A model generated the notes under the pieces. It did no database searches. It was not told the origin of the DNA and was given only the letters and a program-made list of their open reading frames with translations. The position numbers and the translations under genes are program-made. Positions 2,031-53,882 of a stretch of DNA of 64,000 nucleotides are shown piece by piece (position 1 is the first letter of the stretch; every line of letters begins with the position of its first letter). This DNA comes from Escherichia phage vB_EcoM_PHB13: the sequence record MK573636. The stretch is one strand, 5' to 3'.

Positions 2031-3854
2031 ATGTCTGAATTTTTGCTGTTAGATGATCGCGCTCACTGTCTTAAGAGACCTTCAATGTACATCGGGTCAA
2101 CTACTTATGAATCACATAATCGTTTCCTATTTGGAAAATGGACCAAAGTTTCATACGTTCCCGGTCTAGTTAAAATTATTGATGAAATTATCGACAACTC
2201 TGTAGACGAGGCGATCCGCACTAATTTTGAGTACGCTAATGTTATTAGTGTGGATATAAAAGATAACATTGTGTCAGTAACAGATAATGGTCGCGGTATT
2301 CCGCAACATATTGTTACGACGCCAGAAGGGAAACAGATTCCACAACCAGTTGCTGCATGGACACGAGCTAAAGCAGGGTCTAACTTTGATGATACAAATC
2401 GTGTTACTATGGGTATGAATGGGATCGGAAGCGCGCTCACATCATTTTTCTCGTCCTGGTTTACTGGTGTGACGTGTGACGGAGAGAATGAACTGACCGT
2501 TCAATGTACCAATGGTGCAGAAAATATTAGCTGGTCATCCAAGCCGTCAAAACTGAAAGGAACTAAGGTTACGTTCTGCCCCGATTTCGATCATTTTGAA
2601 GGTATGATCATGTCACAAGAAATTTCAGATGTGATTTGCGACCGAATGTATTCATTGAGTGTAATCTTTCCTAAGATCACGTTTAAATTTAACGGCAAAA
2701 AGATAACCAGCAAGTTCAAGGATTATGCTAAACTATACAATGATGATCCGTTTGTCATCGAGGATAAAAACTTCTCACTTGCCCTAGTTCCTGCGGTCGA
2801 GGGAGAAGGTTTTAAATCAGTATCCTTTGCTAATGGTCTGTTTACCAAAAACGGGGGAACACACGTAGACTACGTGACAGATGATCTTTGTGAAGAGATT
2901 GTAAAACGAATCAAGAAAGAATATAAGGTTGATGTTACTAAAGCTGCGGTTAAGTCTGGATTGACCTGTATTCTTATTGTTCGTGAATTGCCAAACCTCC
3001 GTTTTGATTCACAGACAAAAGAACGATTGACTAATCCAACTGGTGATATCAAGCGTCATATTGATCTTGATTTTAAAAAGCTGGCTAAAGTCATTGCGAA
3101 GAAAGAAAACATTATCATGCCTATTATTGCTGTAGTCCTGGCACGCAAAGAGGCAGCAGATAAAGCGGCAGCGACTAAGGCAGCAAAGGCAGCAAAACGG
3201 GCTAAGGTAGCAAAACACGTTAAAGCTAACCTTATTGGAACTGACGCAGAAACTACCCTGTTTTTGACGGAAGGTGATTCCGCGATCAACTATCTGATCT
3301 CTGTACGTGATCAAGATTTACATGGCGGTTTCCCATTGCGAGGTAAAACTCTTACAACATGGGAACAACCGGAGGCAAAGATCGTTAAGAACGCCGAAAT
3401 TTTTAACATCATGGCTATCACTGGTTTGCAATTTGGTGTTGATGCATTGGAAGTTATGCAATACAAAAATATTGCGATTATGACTGACGCGGATACCGAC
3501 GGGATCGGGTCTATTAAACCTAGTCTGATCTCCTTCTTTGCACGTTGGCCTGAATTGTTCGAAGATGGACGAATCCGGTTTATCAAAACGCCTATTATCA
3601 TTGCTGAACCAAAGAAAGGTGATGATGTTCGATGGTATTATGACCTAGAAGATTTCGAGAACGACCGAGATAATATCAAAGGTTACAACATTCGATATAT
3701 CAAAGGTTTAGCATCGCTCACAGAATCAGACTATCATCGCGTGATCAACGATCCTGTCATGGAGATCATCACGTTACCGGAAAACTATAAAGAGCTATTC
3801 GATTTGCTCTATAGTGAAGATGCAGATCAGCGCAAAATTTGGATGCAATCATAA
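2031..3854 (+). CDS. 39: DNA topoisomerase II large subunit, fused gp39+gp60 equivalent (607 aa)
   Basis: N-terminal GyrB-like ATPase region matches T4 gp39; C-terminal IAIMTDADTDGIGSI...RIWMQS matches T4 gp60; one uninterrupted ORF. Confidence 0.9.
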   Translation: MSEFLLLDDRAHCLKRPSMYIGSTTYESHNRFLFGKWTKVSYVPGLVKIIDEIIDNSVDEAIRTNFEYANVISVDIKDNIVSVTDNGRGIPQHIVTTPEGKQIPQPVAAWTRAKAGSNFDDTNRVTMGMNGIGSALTSFFSSWFTGVTCDGENELTVQCTNGAENISWSSKPSKLKGTKVTFCPDFDHFEGMIMSQEISDVICDRMYSLSVIFPKITFKFNGKKITSKFKDYAKLYNDDPFVIEDKNFSLALVPAVEGEGFKSVSFANGLFTKNGGTHVDYVTDDLCEEIVKRIKKEYKVDVTKAAVKSGLTCILIVRELPNLRFDSQTKERLTNPTGDIKRHIDLDFKKLAKVIAKKENIIMPIIAVVLARKEAADKAAATKAAKAAKRAKVAKHVKANLIGTDAETTLFLTEGDSAINYLISVRDQDLHGGFPLRGKTLTTWEQPEAKIVKNAEIFNIMAITGLQFGVDALEVMQYKNIAIMTDADTDGIGSIKPSLISFFARWPELFEDGRIRFIKTPIIIAEPKKGDDVRWYYDLEDFENDRDNIKGYNIRYIKGLASLTESDYHRVINDPVMEIITLPENYKELFDLLYSEDADQRKIWMQS

Positions 3855-47637: not shown

Positions 47638-47949
47638 ATGAAATACATCGTAACGCTGCCAATGATTGACTTCGACGGAACCATGAACACCCAGAAGACC
47701 ATGAGCGCGGAGAACCAACTGAAAAACGCTACCCTGATTCGTGAAGTTCGCAAGGCACTGGCAAAAGAATTTAACACCAAAATTCATTCTGTAACTGGCG
47801 AACGTTTCGCGGATCATCTTGATATCAATATCAAACCAGTGCGCAACGGTGTTATCTCTGTAACAACCAACCGCCCACATGCTGACGCTGATAATCTGAC
47901 CGCTCGCGCAGAAGATGTAATTATGACCGTTATCATGGAAAAACTTTAA
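47638..47949 (+). CDS. hypothetical protein (103 aa)
   Basis: ORF after the cassette; shares A.R.VR.A.AKEFN.K with the 50954 ORF. Confidence 0.55.
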   Translation: MKYIVTLPMIDFDGTMNTQKTMSAENQLKNATLIREVRKALAKEFNTKIHSVTGERFADHLDINIKPVRNGVISVTTNRPHADADNLTARAEDVIMTVIMEKL

Positions 47950-48219: not shown

Positions 48220-48522
48220 ATGGCAAAAGTTCAGGTAGGTGAGGTCTTCAAAATGGAAGACCATACCGTGGAAGAGATGAAAGGCGCAGTATTGAAAGTA
48301 ATTAATTCAATGTGGCGTAGTGTGCTTTACATCAACTTTATCGACGGTGATGTGTGGTGGGCTAGCGATAGCGATAAATGGGATATCAAGTTCTACAAAG
48401 GTCATACTCACTGGTTAGGATCAGAGGATGTTGTAGAAGTTCTGGCGGTTGATGTTATGCCAGGAGAGATCGAGAATCTTAGCGGAACAGCAAAAGAAGC
48501 ATTGACACGCCATTTTGCGTAA
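48220..48522 (+). CDS. H-x-H-W family paralogue 1 (100 aa)
   Basis: ...YINFIDGDV...KGHTHWLGSEDVVEVLAVDV... Confidence 0.55.
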   Translation: MAKVQVGEVFKMEDHTVEEMKGAVLKVINSMWRSVLYINFIDGDVWWASDSDKWDIKFYKGHTHWLGSEDVVEVLAVDVMPGEIENLSGTAKEALTRHFA

Positions 48523-48786: not shown

Positions 48787-49095
48787 ATGGAACAAACTAA
48801 GCTATTTGTCGCGGAACCTTTTGTAAGAGACAATAAAAATCTGGCTAAAACAATCATTTTGTATTCGGATTGGATCTTTTATATCGATGGTAATTTAGAC
48901 GTATATTGTCGCACAGCTCCAACTGATTCGTTTTATATCGAAGAAAACGACACTCATAATCATTGGTATGATGGAAACGACAAAACCGAACTAGCTGTTG
49001 TCCTAGCGTCAGACGTAGAACCTGAAAACGCGGACAAAGTAGCAGACAAATTTATGAAGTACGCATATAAAGATAAAAATGAAGATGAAGAATAA
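48787..49095 (+). CDS. H-x-H-W family paralogue 2 (102 aa)
   Basis: ATG 48787; ...WIFYIDGNLDVY...DTHNHWYDGNDKTELAVVLASDV... Confidence 0.55.
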   Translation: MEQTKLFVAEPFVRDNKNLAKTIILYSDWIFYIDGNLDVYCRTAPTDSFYIEENDTHNHWYDGNDKTELAVVLASDVEPENADKVADKFMKYAYKDKNEDEE

Positions 49096-49102
49096 AAAGT
49101 TG

Positions 49103-49131
49103 TTGACAGGGGATCACCGATCCCCTATAAT
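49103..49131 (+). promoter_or_regulatory. early promoter with stem-loop (PeSL-like, GGGGATC family)
   Basis: TTGACA 49103-49108, stem GGGGATC-ACC-GATCCCC, TATAAT 49126-49131. Confidence 0.6.
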
Positions 49132-49165
49132 ACACACATACCAACGAGATATAGGAGAATCAAAA

Positions 49166-49333
49166 ATGTTCCAGACTAAAGCAGAATGCGAAGCATACAT
49201 TGTAGCAAACCACGGTGAAGACTACCTGAAATTCGATATCGTAGTAGCACAGAAGATCACCGGAATGGTTGCAAAATATCTGGGTGTTAAAGAAGGTTAC
49301 TATCCTAGCAACGCACCAGAAATTAACAAATAA
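49166..49333 (+). CDS. small protein (55 aa), copy 1 of a duplicated gene
   Basis: MFQTKAECEAYIVANHGEDYLKFDIVVAQKITGMVAKYLGVKEGYYPSNAPEINK; near-identical to 52424-52591. Confidence 0.6.
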   Translation: MFQTKAECEAYIVANHGEDYLKFDIVVAQKITGMVAKYLGVKEGYYPSNAPEINK

Positions 49334-49336
49334 TAG

Positions 49337-49371
49337 TTGACAATGATTAAAGGGAGTAGTAAGATACTCCC
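49337..49371 (+). promoter_or_regulatory. early promoter with stem-loop (PeSL-like, GGGAGTA family)
   Basis: TTGACA 49337-49342, TAAGAT 49360-49365 within GGGAGTAGTAAGATACTCCC. Confidence 0.6.
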
Positions 49372-49397
49372 ATCAAGACAACAAACGGAGAATCAAA

Positions 49398-49577
49398 ATG
49401 AAAGCTATCGAAGTTCAGAAGTACATGGAAATCATCGTTGAAAGTAAAGCACATTTAGTGTTGACTACTCACGTAGGATATGATAAAAATGTGCATATGC
49501 TGGTAGACAACATCGGCTGGATGAAGTTTAATCCTAACGAGAACGTACAAGCTCAAGAAATGACCATCCCTTTCTAA
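49398..49577 (+). CDS. hypothetical protein (59 aa)
   Basis: MKAIEVQKYMEIIVESKAHLVLTTHVGYDK...; not in the ORF track. Confidence 0.45.
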   Translation: MKAIEVQKYMEIIVESKAHLVLTTHVGYDKNVHMLVDNIGWMKFNPNENVQAQEMTIPF

Positions 49578-49589
49578 GAGGAATATATT

Positions 49590-49868
49590 ATGATGCGAAT
49601 TACTGCAACGCTGGATAAGACACACAAAGAAAGATTTTTCGGTATGATCTTAAAAACGCCGATTTTCGATAATTACCTTTATGTTGACTATAACGGTCAC
49701 ATTAGCTATAAATGTAAAAATGATATTCGTGATTCCTTTGGTGATAAATCACAAGCCGATATTCACGATCATTGGTGGAACCATGACGAACCTTTACGGG
49801 TTATCGCAGTTGATGTAAAAACAACAAAAGAAGCTGATAAGGTAGTGAATGATTATGAGCAAATTTAA
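49590..49868 (+). CDS. H-x-H-W family paralogue 3 (92 aa)
   Basis: ...NYLYVDYNGHISY...DIHDHWWNHDEPLRVIAVDV... Confidence 0.55.
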   Translation: MMRITATLDKTHKERFFGMILKTPIFDNYLYVDYNGHISYKCKNDIRDSFGDKSQADIHDHWWNHDEPLRVIAVDVKTTKEADKVVNDYEQI

Positions 49869-50064
49869 AGATTATAAAGCATATCAACAGATCTTGCGAG
49901 TATACGAACCAGAGTTCGCCGAAAAGATGATGGAAGATGCATCAAAATGCCCGTCCTTTTCTGGAAACAAAAACCATTATTCTACTGGTATTGTATCATG
50001 GAAAGAAACCGCATATACTCAACAATGGATAGATGTGTTTTCAAAAACTCTTGATTGGTGTTAA
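49855..50064 (+). CDS. small protein, MSKFKDY family copy 1
   Basis: MSKFKDYKAYQQI...MMEDASKC...; tandem paralogue of the next ORF. Confidence 0.5.
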   Translation: MSKFKDYKAYQQILRVYEPEFAEKMMEDASKCPSFSGNKNHYSTGIVSWKETAYTQQWIDVFSKTLDWC

Positions 50065-50066
50065 TT

Positions 50067-50282
50067 ATGAGTAAATTTAAAGATTATCGAGCATATAAAG
50101 CGATCTGCGATATATTCGATGAAAAGACCGCTCATGCAATGATGGAAGATGCAGAACAATATGAATCATTCGTCAATTCCAAAGATTGCACAGTAAACGA
50201 GGTTGTGTGCTGGAAAGATACAAAGTATGAAGAAAAATGGATTACTGTGTATTACGGAGAACTAGAATATGAAATTAACTAA
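50067..50282 (+). CDS. small protein, MSKFKDY family copy 2
   Basis: MSKFKDYRAYKAI...MMEDAEQY... Confidence 0.5.
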   Translation: MSKFKDYRAYKAICDIFDEKTAHAMMEDAEQYESFVNSKDCTVNEVVCWKDTKYEEKWITVYYGELEYEIN

Positions 50283-50589
50283 AAAGATTTTCCCAGAATT
50301 GCGTAACTGTCTGTTACTGGTTACTGAATATAAACCTTATACGATCTACTTGTATGTTGATGAAAATCTGAAAATCCGTTACTATGATTATACGTCTCCA
50401 GTAATGAGATCATTTGCTCACGCGATAGCAAACAATTGTATGAATCATAATCATTGGGTAAGTGATAATGATCATGATGCGTCAGAAGTTGTAGTGATCG
50501 CATGGAATCTATCACCAGCGGAAGCAGATCAAGCACGCATTAAGCATTATGCGAAAAACAATTGGTTTGACCTTATAAGTGAGGACTAA
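50269..50589 (+). CDS. H-x-H-W family paralogue 4 (106 aa)
   Basis: ...YTIYLYVDENLKIRYYDY...NHNHWVSDNDHDASEVVVIAWNL... Confidence 0.55.
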   Translation: MKLTKKIFPELRNCLLLVTEYKPYTIYLYVDENLKIRYYDYTSPVMRSFAHAIANNCMNHNHWVSDNDHDASEVVVIAWNLSPAEADQARIKHYAKNNWFDLISED

Positions 50590-50593
50590 TATT

Positions 50594-50872
50594 ATGTTCA
50601 AAGTAGGTGATAAGTTTATTCTTAGTCGTGATATTCTCCCTAATCTGAAAGGTTGTATCATCAATCCTAGTAAAAATTCATGGTTTTATCTGTTTATCGA
50701 CGACAAACTGAATGTACGCGCCGAATATAAAGAAGGTCTTCGTACTGGTCTAGGTTTCTTTCACGATCATGATCATAGCCATTGGCTAAACGGTGGATTC
50801 GAAGCAACGGTGCTAGCGGTTGATGTGACTTACACGAACATCATAGAAAAATATCAAAAAATTATTTTATAA
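50594..50872 (+). CDS. H-x-H-W family paralogue 5 (92 aa)
   Basis: ATG 50594 after GAGGAC; ...WFYLFIDDKLNV...HDHDHSHWLNGGFEATVLAVDV... Confidence 0.55.
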   Translation: MFKVGDKFILSRDILPNLKGCIINPSKNSWFYLFIDDKLNVRAEYKEGLRTGLGFFHDHDHSHWLNGGFEATVLAVDVTYTNIIEKYQKIIL

Positions 50873-50878
50873 AAAGTG

Positions 50879-50913
50879 TTGACATAAGATCGGGTGTATA
50901 GCATAATACACCC
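50879..50913 (+). promoter_or_regulatory. early promoter with stem-loop (PeSL-like, GGGTGTAT family)
   Basis: TTGACA 50879-50884, 17-nt spacer, CATAAT 50902-50907 in loop of GGGTGTAT...ATACACCC. Confidence 0.6.
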
Positions 50914-50953
50914 ATCGAAACGAGATACACTTTCTAACTAGGAGAATCAAATT

Positions 50954-51241
50954 ATGGCATACATCACTATCACTCTGAAAGTTAACAAATTTGCTCACGC
51001 TGCACACGAAACCGATAATGCAATCCGTAACAACAAGTTTGCACGTCTGGTACGCGATGCAGTAGCTAAAGAGTTCAACTTCAAATTTGCAGATGGTAAA
51101 GTTATCACTAAATGGACTCATGACGGCGAAACTAAAGTAGAACTTGCTGACAACTTCGCAAATCAGGAATATGCACACCGCCGCATCAATGAAATCATCA
51201 GCGATGAACTCTACTACGGAGTACAGGAAGGTTTGTTTTAA
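50954..51241 (+). CDS. hypothetical protein (95 aa)
   Basis: ORF after the cassette; weak similarity to the 47638 ORF. Confidence 0.55.
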   Translation: MAYITITLKVNKFAHAAHETDNAIRNNKFARLVRDAVAKEFNFKFADGKVITKWTHDGETKVELADNFANQEYAHRRINEIISDELYYGVQEGLF

Positions 51242-51290: not shown

Positions 51291-51599
51291 ATGAAAAATC
51301 TTGTAGTTGAATTTACCCGCGAGAATTTACCACAATTTCGCAATTCTCTGCTTAAACTAGAGAACAGTAATTATGATGTATATTTTTACATCACCGAAGA
51401 TCTAGAGATCCTTTACGCTGATTACCCAGGTCCGATCCGTACCTTCGAAACCGCATCAAAATATAAAAATGTGCACGGTCATGAGCACTGGTTACGAGAA
51501 AACCCAGGTCGCAAGAAAGCACGCGTTAAAGTGTTGGCGATTGACATAACACCAGCATACGCCGACCGGATTGCACAGAATGATTATTTGTCTAAATGA
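51291..51599 (+). CDS. H-x-H-W family paralogue 6 (102 aa)
   Basis: ATG 51291; ...YDVYFYITEDLEILYADY...HGHEHWLRENPGRKKARVKVLAIDI... Confidence 0.55.
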   Translation: MKNLVVEFTRENLPQFRNSLLKLENSNYDVYFYITEDLEILYADYPGPIRTFETASKYKNVHGHEHWLRENPGRKKARVKVLAIDITPAYADRIAQNDYLSK

Positions 51600-52347: not shown

Positions 52348-52361
52348 TTTTAAAAAAGTTG

Positions 52362-52390
52362 TTGACGGGGATCGGGAGATCCCCTATAAT
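52362..52390 (+). promoter_or_regulatory. early promoter with stem-loop (PeSL-like, GGGGATC family)
   Basis: TTGACG 52362-52367, stem GGGGATC-GGGA-GATCCCC, TATAAT 52385-52390. Confidence 0.6.
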
Positions 52391-52423
52391 ACACACATAC
52401 CGAAACGAAATAGGAGAATCAAA

Positions 52424-52591
52424 ATGTTCGAGACTAAAGCAGCATGTGAAGCATATATCATTGAAACCCACGGCGAAGATTATCTGAAATTTGACATTGT
52501 AGTAGCACAGAAGATTGTAGGGATGGTTGCGAAATACCTCGGAGTTAAAGAAGGTTACTATCCAAGCAACGCACCGGAAATTAACAAATAA
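52424..52591 (+). CDS. small protein (55 aa), copy 2 of a duplicated gene
   Basis: MFETKAACEAYIIETHGEDYLKFDIVVAQKIVGMVAKYLGVKEGYYPSNAPEINK; about 90% amino-acid identity to 49166-49333. Confidence 0.6.
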   Translation: MFETKAACEAYIIETHGEDYLKFDIVVAQKIVGMVAKYLGVKEGYYPSNAPEINK

Positions 52592-52606
52592 TTTTTATAA
52601 AAAGTG

Positions 52607-52927: not shown

Positions 52928-53169
52928 AAAGAAAATTAATTAAACGAAATAAGGAATTTTTGAATAACTGCATTAAGGTTGCTAATGGTTGGCCTTTGTT
53001 CCTCTTCCTTTATGATTGGTATTCTAAACAATCGGTAGAGGAAACACGACACTATAAGAAGATCAGAAAAGAATCATATACAAAACAAGGCCGCATTAAC
53101 GGACTTTACTTAATGTGGCACGGCAAAGAACCTTCTAAAATCTGTGTTGGATTAAAGGGGCGTATATGA
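52924..53169 (+). CDS. hypothetical basic protein (81 aa)
   Basis: GTG start overlapping the previous stop; its stop overlaps the next start (ATGA). Confidence 0.45.
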   Translation: MKRKLIKRNKEFLNNCIKVANGWPLFLFLYDWYSKQSVEETRHYKKIRKESYTKQGRINGLYLMWHGKEPSKICVGLKGRI

Positions 53170-53882
53170 AACAAAAATTAATATTCTGCAACTTTGACGG
53201 ATCGGGGATAATGGGGCTAGAATGGGCTAAAGCAGGTCATAAGGTGATCTGCTTTAATGCAGATGATGCCGACCACGGCACATACAAAAAGTATAATACC
53301 CGATTTGAACATCCAAACATTACATATGTAAACACATGGATTGATTTGGATTGGCTGGAAAGAGCAATGGACCTTGAATGGGGAAAACCAGATATTATCT
53401 TTGCATTCCCACCGTGCACCAATTTAGCTGTTAGTGGCGCTGCACACTTTGAACGAAAGAAACGAGAACAAGGACCATTAATTCAAGTTCATGATGTAAG
53501 GGCAGCTAAAATAACCGCTTATTTGGGCGAATGGTTAGAAGTTCCCTACATGATAGAGAATCCTGTAAGCGTTATCTCTAGCATGTGGCGTAAGCCTGAT
53601 TACATGTTCCACCCGTGGGAATATGGCGGTTATTTGCCGGAATATGATATACATCCTACGTTTCCTGAGTATATTGCCTCCCGTGATATGTACCCGAAAA
53701 AGACTTGCTTATGGACGGGACAAGGTTTTATAATGCCAGAAAAGAAACCTATACCGATTAATAAAGGGTACAGTAAACAGCATTCTAAGCTAGGCGGGAA
53801 AGGAACCAGAACAAAGACTATCAGGTCACTTACCCCGCGAGGATTCGCAAAGGCAGTATTTGAAGCCAATAAGGATCTATGA
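53166..53882 (+). CDS. cytosine-C5 methyltransferase-like catalytic core protein (238 aa)
   Basis: Motif I-like FCNFDGSGIMG, motif IV-like IIFAFPPCTNLAVSGA (Pro-Cys) and motif VI-like YMIENPVSV in DNA C5-MTase order; too short for a target-recognition domain. Confidence 0.5.
   Translation: MKQKLIFCNFDGSGIMGLEWAKAGHKVICFNADDADHGTYKKYNTRFEHPNITYVNTWIDLDWLERAMDLEWGKPDIIFAFPPCTNLAVSGAAHFERKKREQGPLIQVHDVRAAKITAYLGEWLEVPYMIENPVSVISSMWRKPDYMFHPWEYGGYLPEYDIHPTFPEYIASRDMYPKKTCLWTGQGFIMPEKKPIPINKGYSKQHSKLGGKGTRTKTIRSLTPRGFAKAVFEANKDL

Follow-up and report, generated by a model that had tools for sequence, protein, structure and literature searches.

The window, as the whole 64,000-nt stretch of DNA analysed is called here, contains two adjacent small open reading frames, orfA and orfB, in an ORFan-rich stretch downstream of the DNA ligase. 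This stretch is one of the hyperplastic regions of the RB49/phi1 group and is studded with PeSL repeats. All 58 phage records that matched the 6 kb around the pair, at 93-96% nucleotide identity, are RB49/Phi1/JSE/GEC-3S-like T4-type coliphages (genus Krischvirus), with vB_EcoM_011D4 and E26 as the top matches. In annotated relatives the region extends from just past the DNA ligase to a putative C-5 cytosine methylase, and everything in between is labelled 'hypothetical protein'. In the hyperplastic regions of RB49 and phi1, ORFans are shuffled between promoter/stem-loop motifs named PeSLs, whose promoter and terminator activities were measured by reporter assays (Arbiol et al. 2010, PMC2839356). 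By repeat search and promoter scan, sigma70-consensus promoters with embedded stem-loops were found in 7 copies between 46.5 and 53.5 kb of the window. The cassette that holds the pair comprises the following features:

49329-49386, + strand: upstream PeSL-type motif (repeat family D1; promoter scan; RNA fold)
49398-49577, + strand: cassette ORF 1, 59 aa, unknown function (from the ORF list; 'hypothetical protein' in RB49, JSE and Phi1)
49590-49868, + strand: H-x-H-W member 3, 92 aa, phrog_15972; its last 14 nt overlap the start of orfA
49855-50064, + strand: orfA, ATG to TAA, 69 aa, MSKFKDYKAY..., phrog_8471, allele A1
50067-50282, + strand: orfB, ATG to TAA, 71 aa, MSKFKDYRAY..., phrog_8471, allele B1
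50269-50589, + strand: H-x-H-W member 4, 106 aa, phrog_9345
50594-50872, + strand: H-x-H-W member 5, 92 aa, the last cassette gene, with the same start in the RB49 annotation
50871-50928, + strand: downstream PeSL-type motif (repeat and promoter scans, fold)

Six tightly packed + strand ORFs thus lie between the two PeSLs, and the order H-x-H-W 3, orfA, orfB, H-x-H-W 4 is kept in most Krischvirus. The preferred start of orfA is the ATG at 49855, with AAGGTAG 9 nt upstream, while an in-frame ATG at 49849 is also possible; the ATG of orfB lies 2 nt past the TAA of orfA, and the final 14 nt of orfB overlap the start of H-x-H-W 4. The upstream PeSL contains a sigma70-like early promoter (TTGACA-17-TAAGAT, 49337-49365) with an embedded stem-loop at about 49352-49371, folds at -15.2 kcal/mol (z -4.5 relative to shuffled controls), and is likely to be the start of the transcription unit holding the pair. 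The downstream PeSL, with the promoter TTGACA-17-CATAAT at 50879-50907 and a stem-loop at about 50892-50913 (-19.6 kcal/mol, z -5.1), would close the cassette and open the next unit. From the packing and overlaps of the genes, together with the published reporter assays of PeSLs, we infer one early transcript and coupled translation. The defining traits of a PeSL, being a sigma70-consensus promoter with a stem-loop, repetition in the hyperplastic region and flanking ORFans, were all found around the cassette; the pair is internal to the cassette and is not itself a PeSL-bounded variable unit.

The flanking H-x-H-W genes belong to an array of six paralogues (48220-48522, 48787-49095, 49590-49868, 50269-50589, 50594-50872 and 51291-51599; phrog_15972 and phrog_9345, function unknown) in which H-x-H-W and a following V-x-A are invariant and pairwise identity is 22-36%. 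The family had no Pfam match, and the gene content of the array varies among Krischvirus genomes. A preliminary description of this DNA had placed the pair inside such an array, and the paralogues are indeed real, with the pair located between members 3 and 4. The array resembles the pair in being a multi-copy ORFan family of the same cassette series, variable among Krischvirus and apparently translationally coupled to it, but differs in its unrelated sequences of about 92-106 aa, in having six copies rather than two, and in having no homologues in the T7-like early blocks examined.

Elsewhere in the hyperplastic region a second duplication was seen, a 172-nt block at 49163-49334 and 52421-52592 that is 85% identical between copies and codes for a 55-aa ORF (MF[QE]TKA.CEAY...YPSNAPEINK, 89% amino acid identity); a separate PeSL promoter stands ahead of each copy, at 49095-49152 and at about 52354-52424. 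The region ends with a 238-aa ORF at 53166-53882, the counterpart of the 'putative C-5 cytosine DNA methylase' of Ec_Makalu_001, and in some relatives HNH endonuclease insertions occur close by. A suspected likeness between 47638-47949 and 50954-51241 was unsupported (E 7.9).

Paralogy and selection of orfA and orfB

The two ORFs are real, adjacent, full-length paralogues. In a single BLASTP comparison, 28 of 68 aligned residues were identical (41%; 65% positives, no gaps, E 4e-19), the shared ones being MSKFKDY, A9, Y10, I13, A22, MMEDA, S34, F35 and K39, followed by V47, W49, K50, T52, Y54, W58, I59, V61 and L66. Since these are spread along the whole length, the likeness is not one of the first few residues only. 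At the DNA level, 49852-49948 of orfA and 50064-50160 of orfB are 71% identical over 97 nt, and the first 33 coding nt are 88% identical. The genes are thus arranged as a tandem duplication, being 2 nt apart, both on the + strand and homologous over 68 of 69 aa. The preliminary description had reported two adjacent ORFs starting MSKFKDY(K/R)AY with a common MMEDA motif and a conserved tryptophan; the coordinates and strand are exact and the tryptophan is W49, to which W58, I59, V61 and L66 can be added. Its statement that the proteins then diverge understates a likeness that extends ungapped over the whole protein, and its proposal to look for further copies elsewhere yielded none, as tblastn with both proteins found only these two in the 64-kb window (next best match E 2.0).

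Substitution analysis bears on the age and the status of the genes. Among orfA orthologues (15 loci, 105 pairs), the mean dN was 0.026 and the mean dS 0.355, giving a dN/dS of 0.07, and the ratios within the B1 and B2 allele groups of orfB were 0.13 and 0.08, respectively. Between B1 and B2, dN was 0.24 and dS 1.70 (ratio 0.14), and between A and B, dN was 0.55 and dS 1.15, a value at which synonymous divergence is saturated. Intact ORFs were present in 14 of 14 related loci inspected, including records whose annotation skipped orfA, as those of Brandy, pEJ01 and GoldenSnicker do. Judged from these substitution rates, both copies are functional protein-coding genes under purifying selection, and the duplication is old (dS >1) and fixed in Krischvirus. 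The earlier reading of the pair as another local duplication within a hyperplastic region therefore stands as far as the tandem paralogues and their ORFan-rich, PeSL-studded surroundings downstream of the ligase are concerned. The recent, window-specific event that it implied does not: synonymous sites are saturated between A and B, 53 of the 56 Krischvirus records carry both genes, purifying selection acts on each copy, and homologues occur in T7-like early regions.

Alleles and recombination at the B slot

orfA was found in 56 Krischvirus records, and orfB in all of these except two JSE records and KMB43. The B slot is occupied by B1, at least 90% identical to the window, in 21 records and by B2, 60-65% identical, in 32. 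Two more B alleles (P0006 and P0007) come from metagenomic Krischvirus-like contigs, each with a normal A upstream, so that at least four alleles with 63-82% identity are known for the slot. orfA occurs as A1, of 69 aa, and as the RB49-type A2, of 85 aa, in which 5 nt inserted ahead of the stop codon extend the reading frame 41 nt into B. The last 16 codons of the RB49-type gene, at 2501-2758 of the RB49 locus (L002) and also in L001, L014 and L015, overlap orfB out of frame; this allele (P0005) forms the most populated protein cluster, with 97 member sequences.

The histories of the two genes are uncoupled. Between the window and G2248, dS was 0.03 for A and 1.70 for B, and inversely, B is identical between RB49 and G2248 while A has a dS of 0.40; recombination thus takes place between them. 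Conservation in JSE and KMB43 extends through GGTGTTAATTATGA, which includes the B start codon, and an H-x-H-W gene follows. Here orfB, H-x-H-W 4 and H-x-H-W 5 are swapped for two other H-x-H-W genes of 107 and 111 aa, the replacement segments being 2713-3386 in JSE (L003) and 1713-2386 in KMB43 (L009). The first of the replacing genes is unannotated in KMB43. E26 has a B2 body with an MSKFKD 5′ end, while the B2 of RB49 starts MGIQSQFKD.

A natural hybrid was found in two metagenome contigs from independent sequencing runs (L025, 524-721, and L026, 478-675; P0009). Here a single gene occupies the A slot, directly before the gene that normally comes after B, and is A-type over its first ~45 nt and B-type over the remainder, the arrangement that unequal crossover within the common 5′ block should produce. 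The hybrid has also lost 1 nt from an A5 run, a deletion that frameshifts its C-terminus and removes the region of the invariant W58. Consistent with recombination in the shared 5′ block is also an excess of synonymous identity between A and B in codons 1-13: of the 9 conserved degenerate codons there, 8 are identical, and codon usage predicts 4.4 (P 0.012). In the remainder of the gene, 7 of 14 are identical and 5.8 were expected (P 0.34). The copies recombine through the 5′ homology block at 49852-49948, paired with 50064-50160. As judged from the records compared, plasticity today concerns which allele the B slot carries and whether B is present at all, and not the duplication itself. B2 also changes otherwise conserved residues, from MMEDA to MMKEA and from Y54 to H, so that the activities of the copies may differ.

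The setting is that of the PeSL-bounded ORFan cassettes described for the same region of the same RB49/phi1 group (Arbiol et al. 2010, PMC2839356; Comeau et al. 2014, PMC4122927), in which a sigma70 promoter and stem-loop flank ORFans and gene content differs among close relatives. Neither paper mentions orfA or orfB. Unlike those cassettes, the pair is internal to a six-gene unit, and the observed joints do not coincide with a PeSL: that of JSE is at the start codon of orfB and that of L025 within the homologous 5′ coding sequence. Duplication as such is routine, T4-type hyperplastic regions being known for shuffled, multi-copy ORFans, but this instance was previously undescribed. It offers a clean natural example of the evolution of a gene pair, with a conserved copy, an allele-swapping slot, a visible 5′ recombination substrate and natural products of collapse and replacement.

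Family, predicted fold and origin of the pair

Both ORFs match the full 71-position profile of phrog_8471 (unknown function), orfA with an E value of 1.5e-36 (residues 1-69 on profile positions 3-71) and orfB with 3.9e-35 over the same span, and both are full-length members of the family. The T7-like homologues match the same profile. The phrog_8471 record holds neither a function nor the tandem arrangement, the split into A and B or the allele turnover of the B slot, and the latter three were seen here. Clustered at 90% identity, the members found by a word-indexed search of 5.8 billion proteins formed 10 clusters, or 31 with a broader profile, and an exhaustive HMM scan of 1.84 billion representatives gave 9 real clusters, two further candidates (P0016 and P0017) being rejected as repeat-protein artefacts. 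A third search with a 32-sequence profile added no members, and a search with a Krischvirus-only alignment retrieved just 2 IMG/VR loci.

All non-Krischvirus members belong to Autographiviridae or to podovirus-like contigs of ~41-45 kb, the named ones being Enterobacter phage SDFMU_Pec (Koutsourovirus), Yersinia phage ISAO8 and Aeromonas phages Atoyac1 and Atoyac15 (Melnykvirinae). In SDFMU_Pec and ISAO8, two complete genomes that were read from the left end, the homologue is one of the genes of the left-end early block and precedes those for primase, helicase and DNA polymerase. The family member of a podovirus-like metagenome contig (L018) sits just before the gene of a pentapeptide-repeat protein (PF00805; 3212-3610). 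At their N-terminus the Melnykvirinae members have a conserved basic extension, M-x-K-R-x-R-K-x-N-K..., of ~20-30 residues (L005 2444-2731, L006 2408-2686, P0015, P0032, P0033, P0035 and P0037), which neither the Krischvirus nor the Koutsourovirus members possess.

The possibility that the pair moved into T7-like phages together with H-x-H-W or other ORFs of the region was considered and rejected, as only the phrog_8471 family is common to both; no other ORF of the Krischvirus region had a homologue in the T7-like early blocks examined. Searches of 5,426 complete E. coli genomes and of the GTDB species representatives gave no family copy, the latter using Krischvirus-type patterns only and hence having limited sensitivity.

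AlphaFold2 modelling with a 29-sequence alignment gave a pLDDT of 93.6 and a pTM of 0.80, with helices at residues 8-14, 19-30, 43-46 and 55-64, and each protein is predicted to fold into a compact helical domain of ~65 residues. The residues that are invariant or nearly so in the family are A22, M25, M26, D28, A29, V47, W49, Y54 and W58. A22, M25, M26 and A29 have i, i+3, i+4, i+7 spacing and the aromatics lie in the C-terminal half; going by spacing, the former would share one face of helix 2 and pack in the core with V47, W49, Y54 and W58, and D28 would be a candidate surface residue. Pfam gave no match for A or B, and no Pfam family was matched by more than one of 29 members. A sequence profile search of the PDB returned nothing significant (best E 0.019), and Foldseek with two models found no match in the PDB (best E 3.9 and 5.3). 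Against BFVD it found only uncharacterised relatives, from a Krischvirus, Aeromonas phage phiAS7 and Yersinia phage fHe-Yen3-01.

In a neighbour-joining tree the A and B alleles grouped together, with a metagenomic sequence as sister, and since bootstrap support for this group was below 50% on 62 columns, duplication within the lineage is no more than likely. In the less probable scenario, two homologues that had already diverged came in independently, through horizontal transfer or the shuffling of cassettes, became adjacent, and had their 5′ ends made alike later by gene conversion. The region does shuffle cassettes, as seen in the JSE replacement and the allele swaps of the B slot, the occurrence of the family in unrelated phages provides possible donors, and the signs of homogenisation at the 5′ ends, like the low bootstrap of the A and B clade, would fit. 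A and B are still the nearest groups in the tree, however, with the non-Krischvirus members farther away at 25-45% identity; the two genes agree in length, orientation and spacing, and no T7-like genome was found with two copies. Separate acquisition is therefore considered unlikely, and an in-lineage tandem duplication is the likely origin of orfA and orfB on the sequence comparisons made.

Possible role

The explanation that we favour, at a probability of roughly 55%, is that orfA and orfB are two functional phrog_8471 genes from an old tandem duplication, located in an early cassette and having a host-directed early role, with A conserved and B diversifying. Host RNA polymerase would transcribe the cassette immediately after infection, and the proteins would be small soluble binders of host factors, active in host takeover or counter-defence. 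A would be the conserved copy and B the diversifying one, tracking a variable target; the B slot evolves by allele replacement and recombination. The most likely role would thus be that of an early host-directed accessory protein acting by host-factor binding. This is suggested by the early sigma70-type promoters, by the place of the family among early accessory genes of three unrelated lytic phage groups, by the small, soluble, single-domain character of the proteins, by the variable presence and allele turnover of one copy and by the absence from the bacterial genomes searched. The argument from gene neighbourhood is weak, since no other ORF of the region is common with the T7-like early blocks. 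The dispensability of B in JSE and KMB43, the loss of the invariant W58 from the single-copy hybrid, the residue changes of B2 and the low bootstrap support of the A and B clade also count against the favoured explanation.

Neither homology nor fold (Pfam, PDB sequences, Foldseek) gave a match indicating a mechanism. The literature search found no paper on RB49p201/202 or phi1p201/202, no Krischvirus transcriptome, and no report of expression, interaction or phenotype for any family member; a text search with the protein motif returned noise only, and no family member was present in the supplements of the accessory-gene screen of Silas et al. A DNA mimic of the Ocr/ArdA type was rejected on charge: the predicted pI is 6.5 for A and 4.5 for B and ranges from 4.5 to 9.8 in the family, which is not uniformly acidic.

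The proteins could instead regulate the phage's own programme, as small nucleic-acid-binding proteins or as transcription or translation regulators of the early region. The small helical domain is compatible with this and the basic extension of the Melnykvirinae members could bind nucleic acid, but the Krischvirus copies are without that extension and their pI is neutral to acidic. The searches matched neither a helix-turn-helix nor any other family or fold that binds nucleic acid, and a dispensable, variable gene, such as B with its absence from JSE, would be unusual as a core regulator; a regulatory role directed at the phage itself is hence thought improbable. About as improbable is that A and B form a heterodimer, or are partners of the flanking H-x-H-W proteins, with translational coupling setting the stoichiometry of a complex. 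The overlapping or abutting start and stop codons that link H-x-H-W 3, A, B and H-x-H-W 4, and the conservation of this order in most Krischvirus, are what such a complex would predict, whereas JSE and KMB43 retain A in the absence of B, the alleles of the two genes reassort freely, and the T7-like homologues are single and have no H-x-H-W neighbour. That the ORFs are non-functional remnants or chance ORFs of a decaying variable region, a notion to which the frameshifted variants P0008, P0009 and P0010 and the omission of orfA from some annotations might lend themselves, is effectively refuted by dN/dS values of 0.07-0.14 at dS up to 1.7, and the intact ORFs in all loci inspected, the confident fold prediction and the conservation of the family across phage families likewise contradict it.

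Returning to the host-directed early role, its boldest form is that the family represents a new class of host-takeover or counter-defence proteins, with a fold unseen in the PDB and shared horizontally between T4- and T7-type phages, in which A keeps the ancestral target and B, by means of its at least four swapped alleles, tracks a polymorphic host factor or defence. This is a speculative extension that we would put forward only tentatively. The family is rare, with ~31 clusters at 90% identity in 5.8 billion proteins, and phage-only, occurring in three groups of lytic phages that are unrelated to one another, and with a confident predicted fold that has no structural analogue it is a reasonable candidate for counter-defence or host-takeover screens.

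A further parallel is with the small class I early proteins of T7-like phages, such as Ocr, the gp0.4-0.7 block and the SAMase of T3. The T7-like family members lie in the equivalent left-end early block, are of similar size, accessory and variably present, and one of them is located four genes upstream of an S-AdoMet lyase. The likeness to Ocr, gp0.4-0.7 and the T3 SAMase is positional only, there being no similarity of sequence or fold. The lyase gene (PF23780) is at 4913-5287 of L018 and is labelled 'SAM-dependent methyltransferase' in PHROGs; the same label is borne by gp07 of ISAO8, which lies four genes past the family member of that phage.
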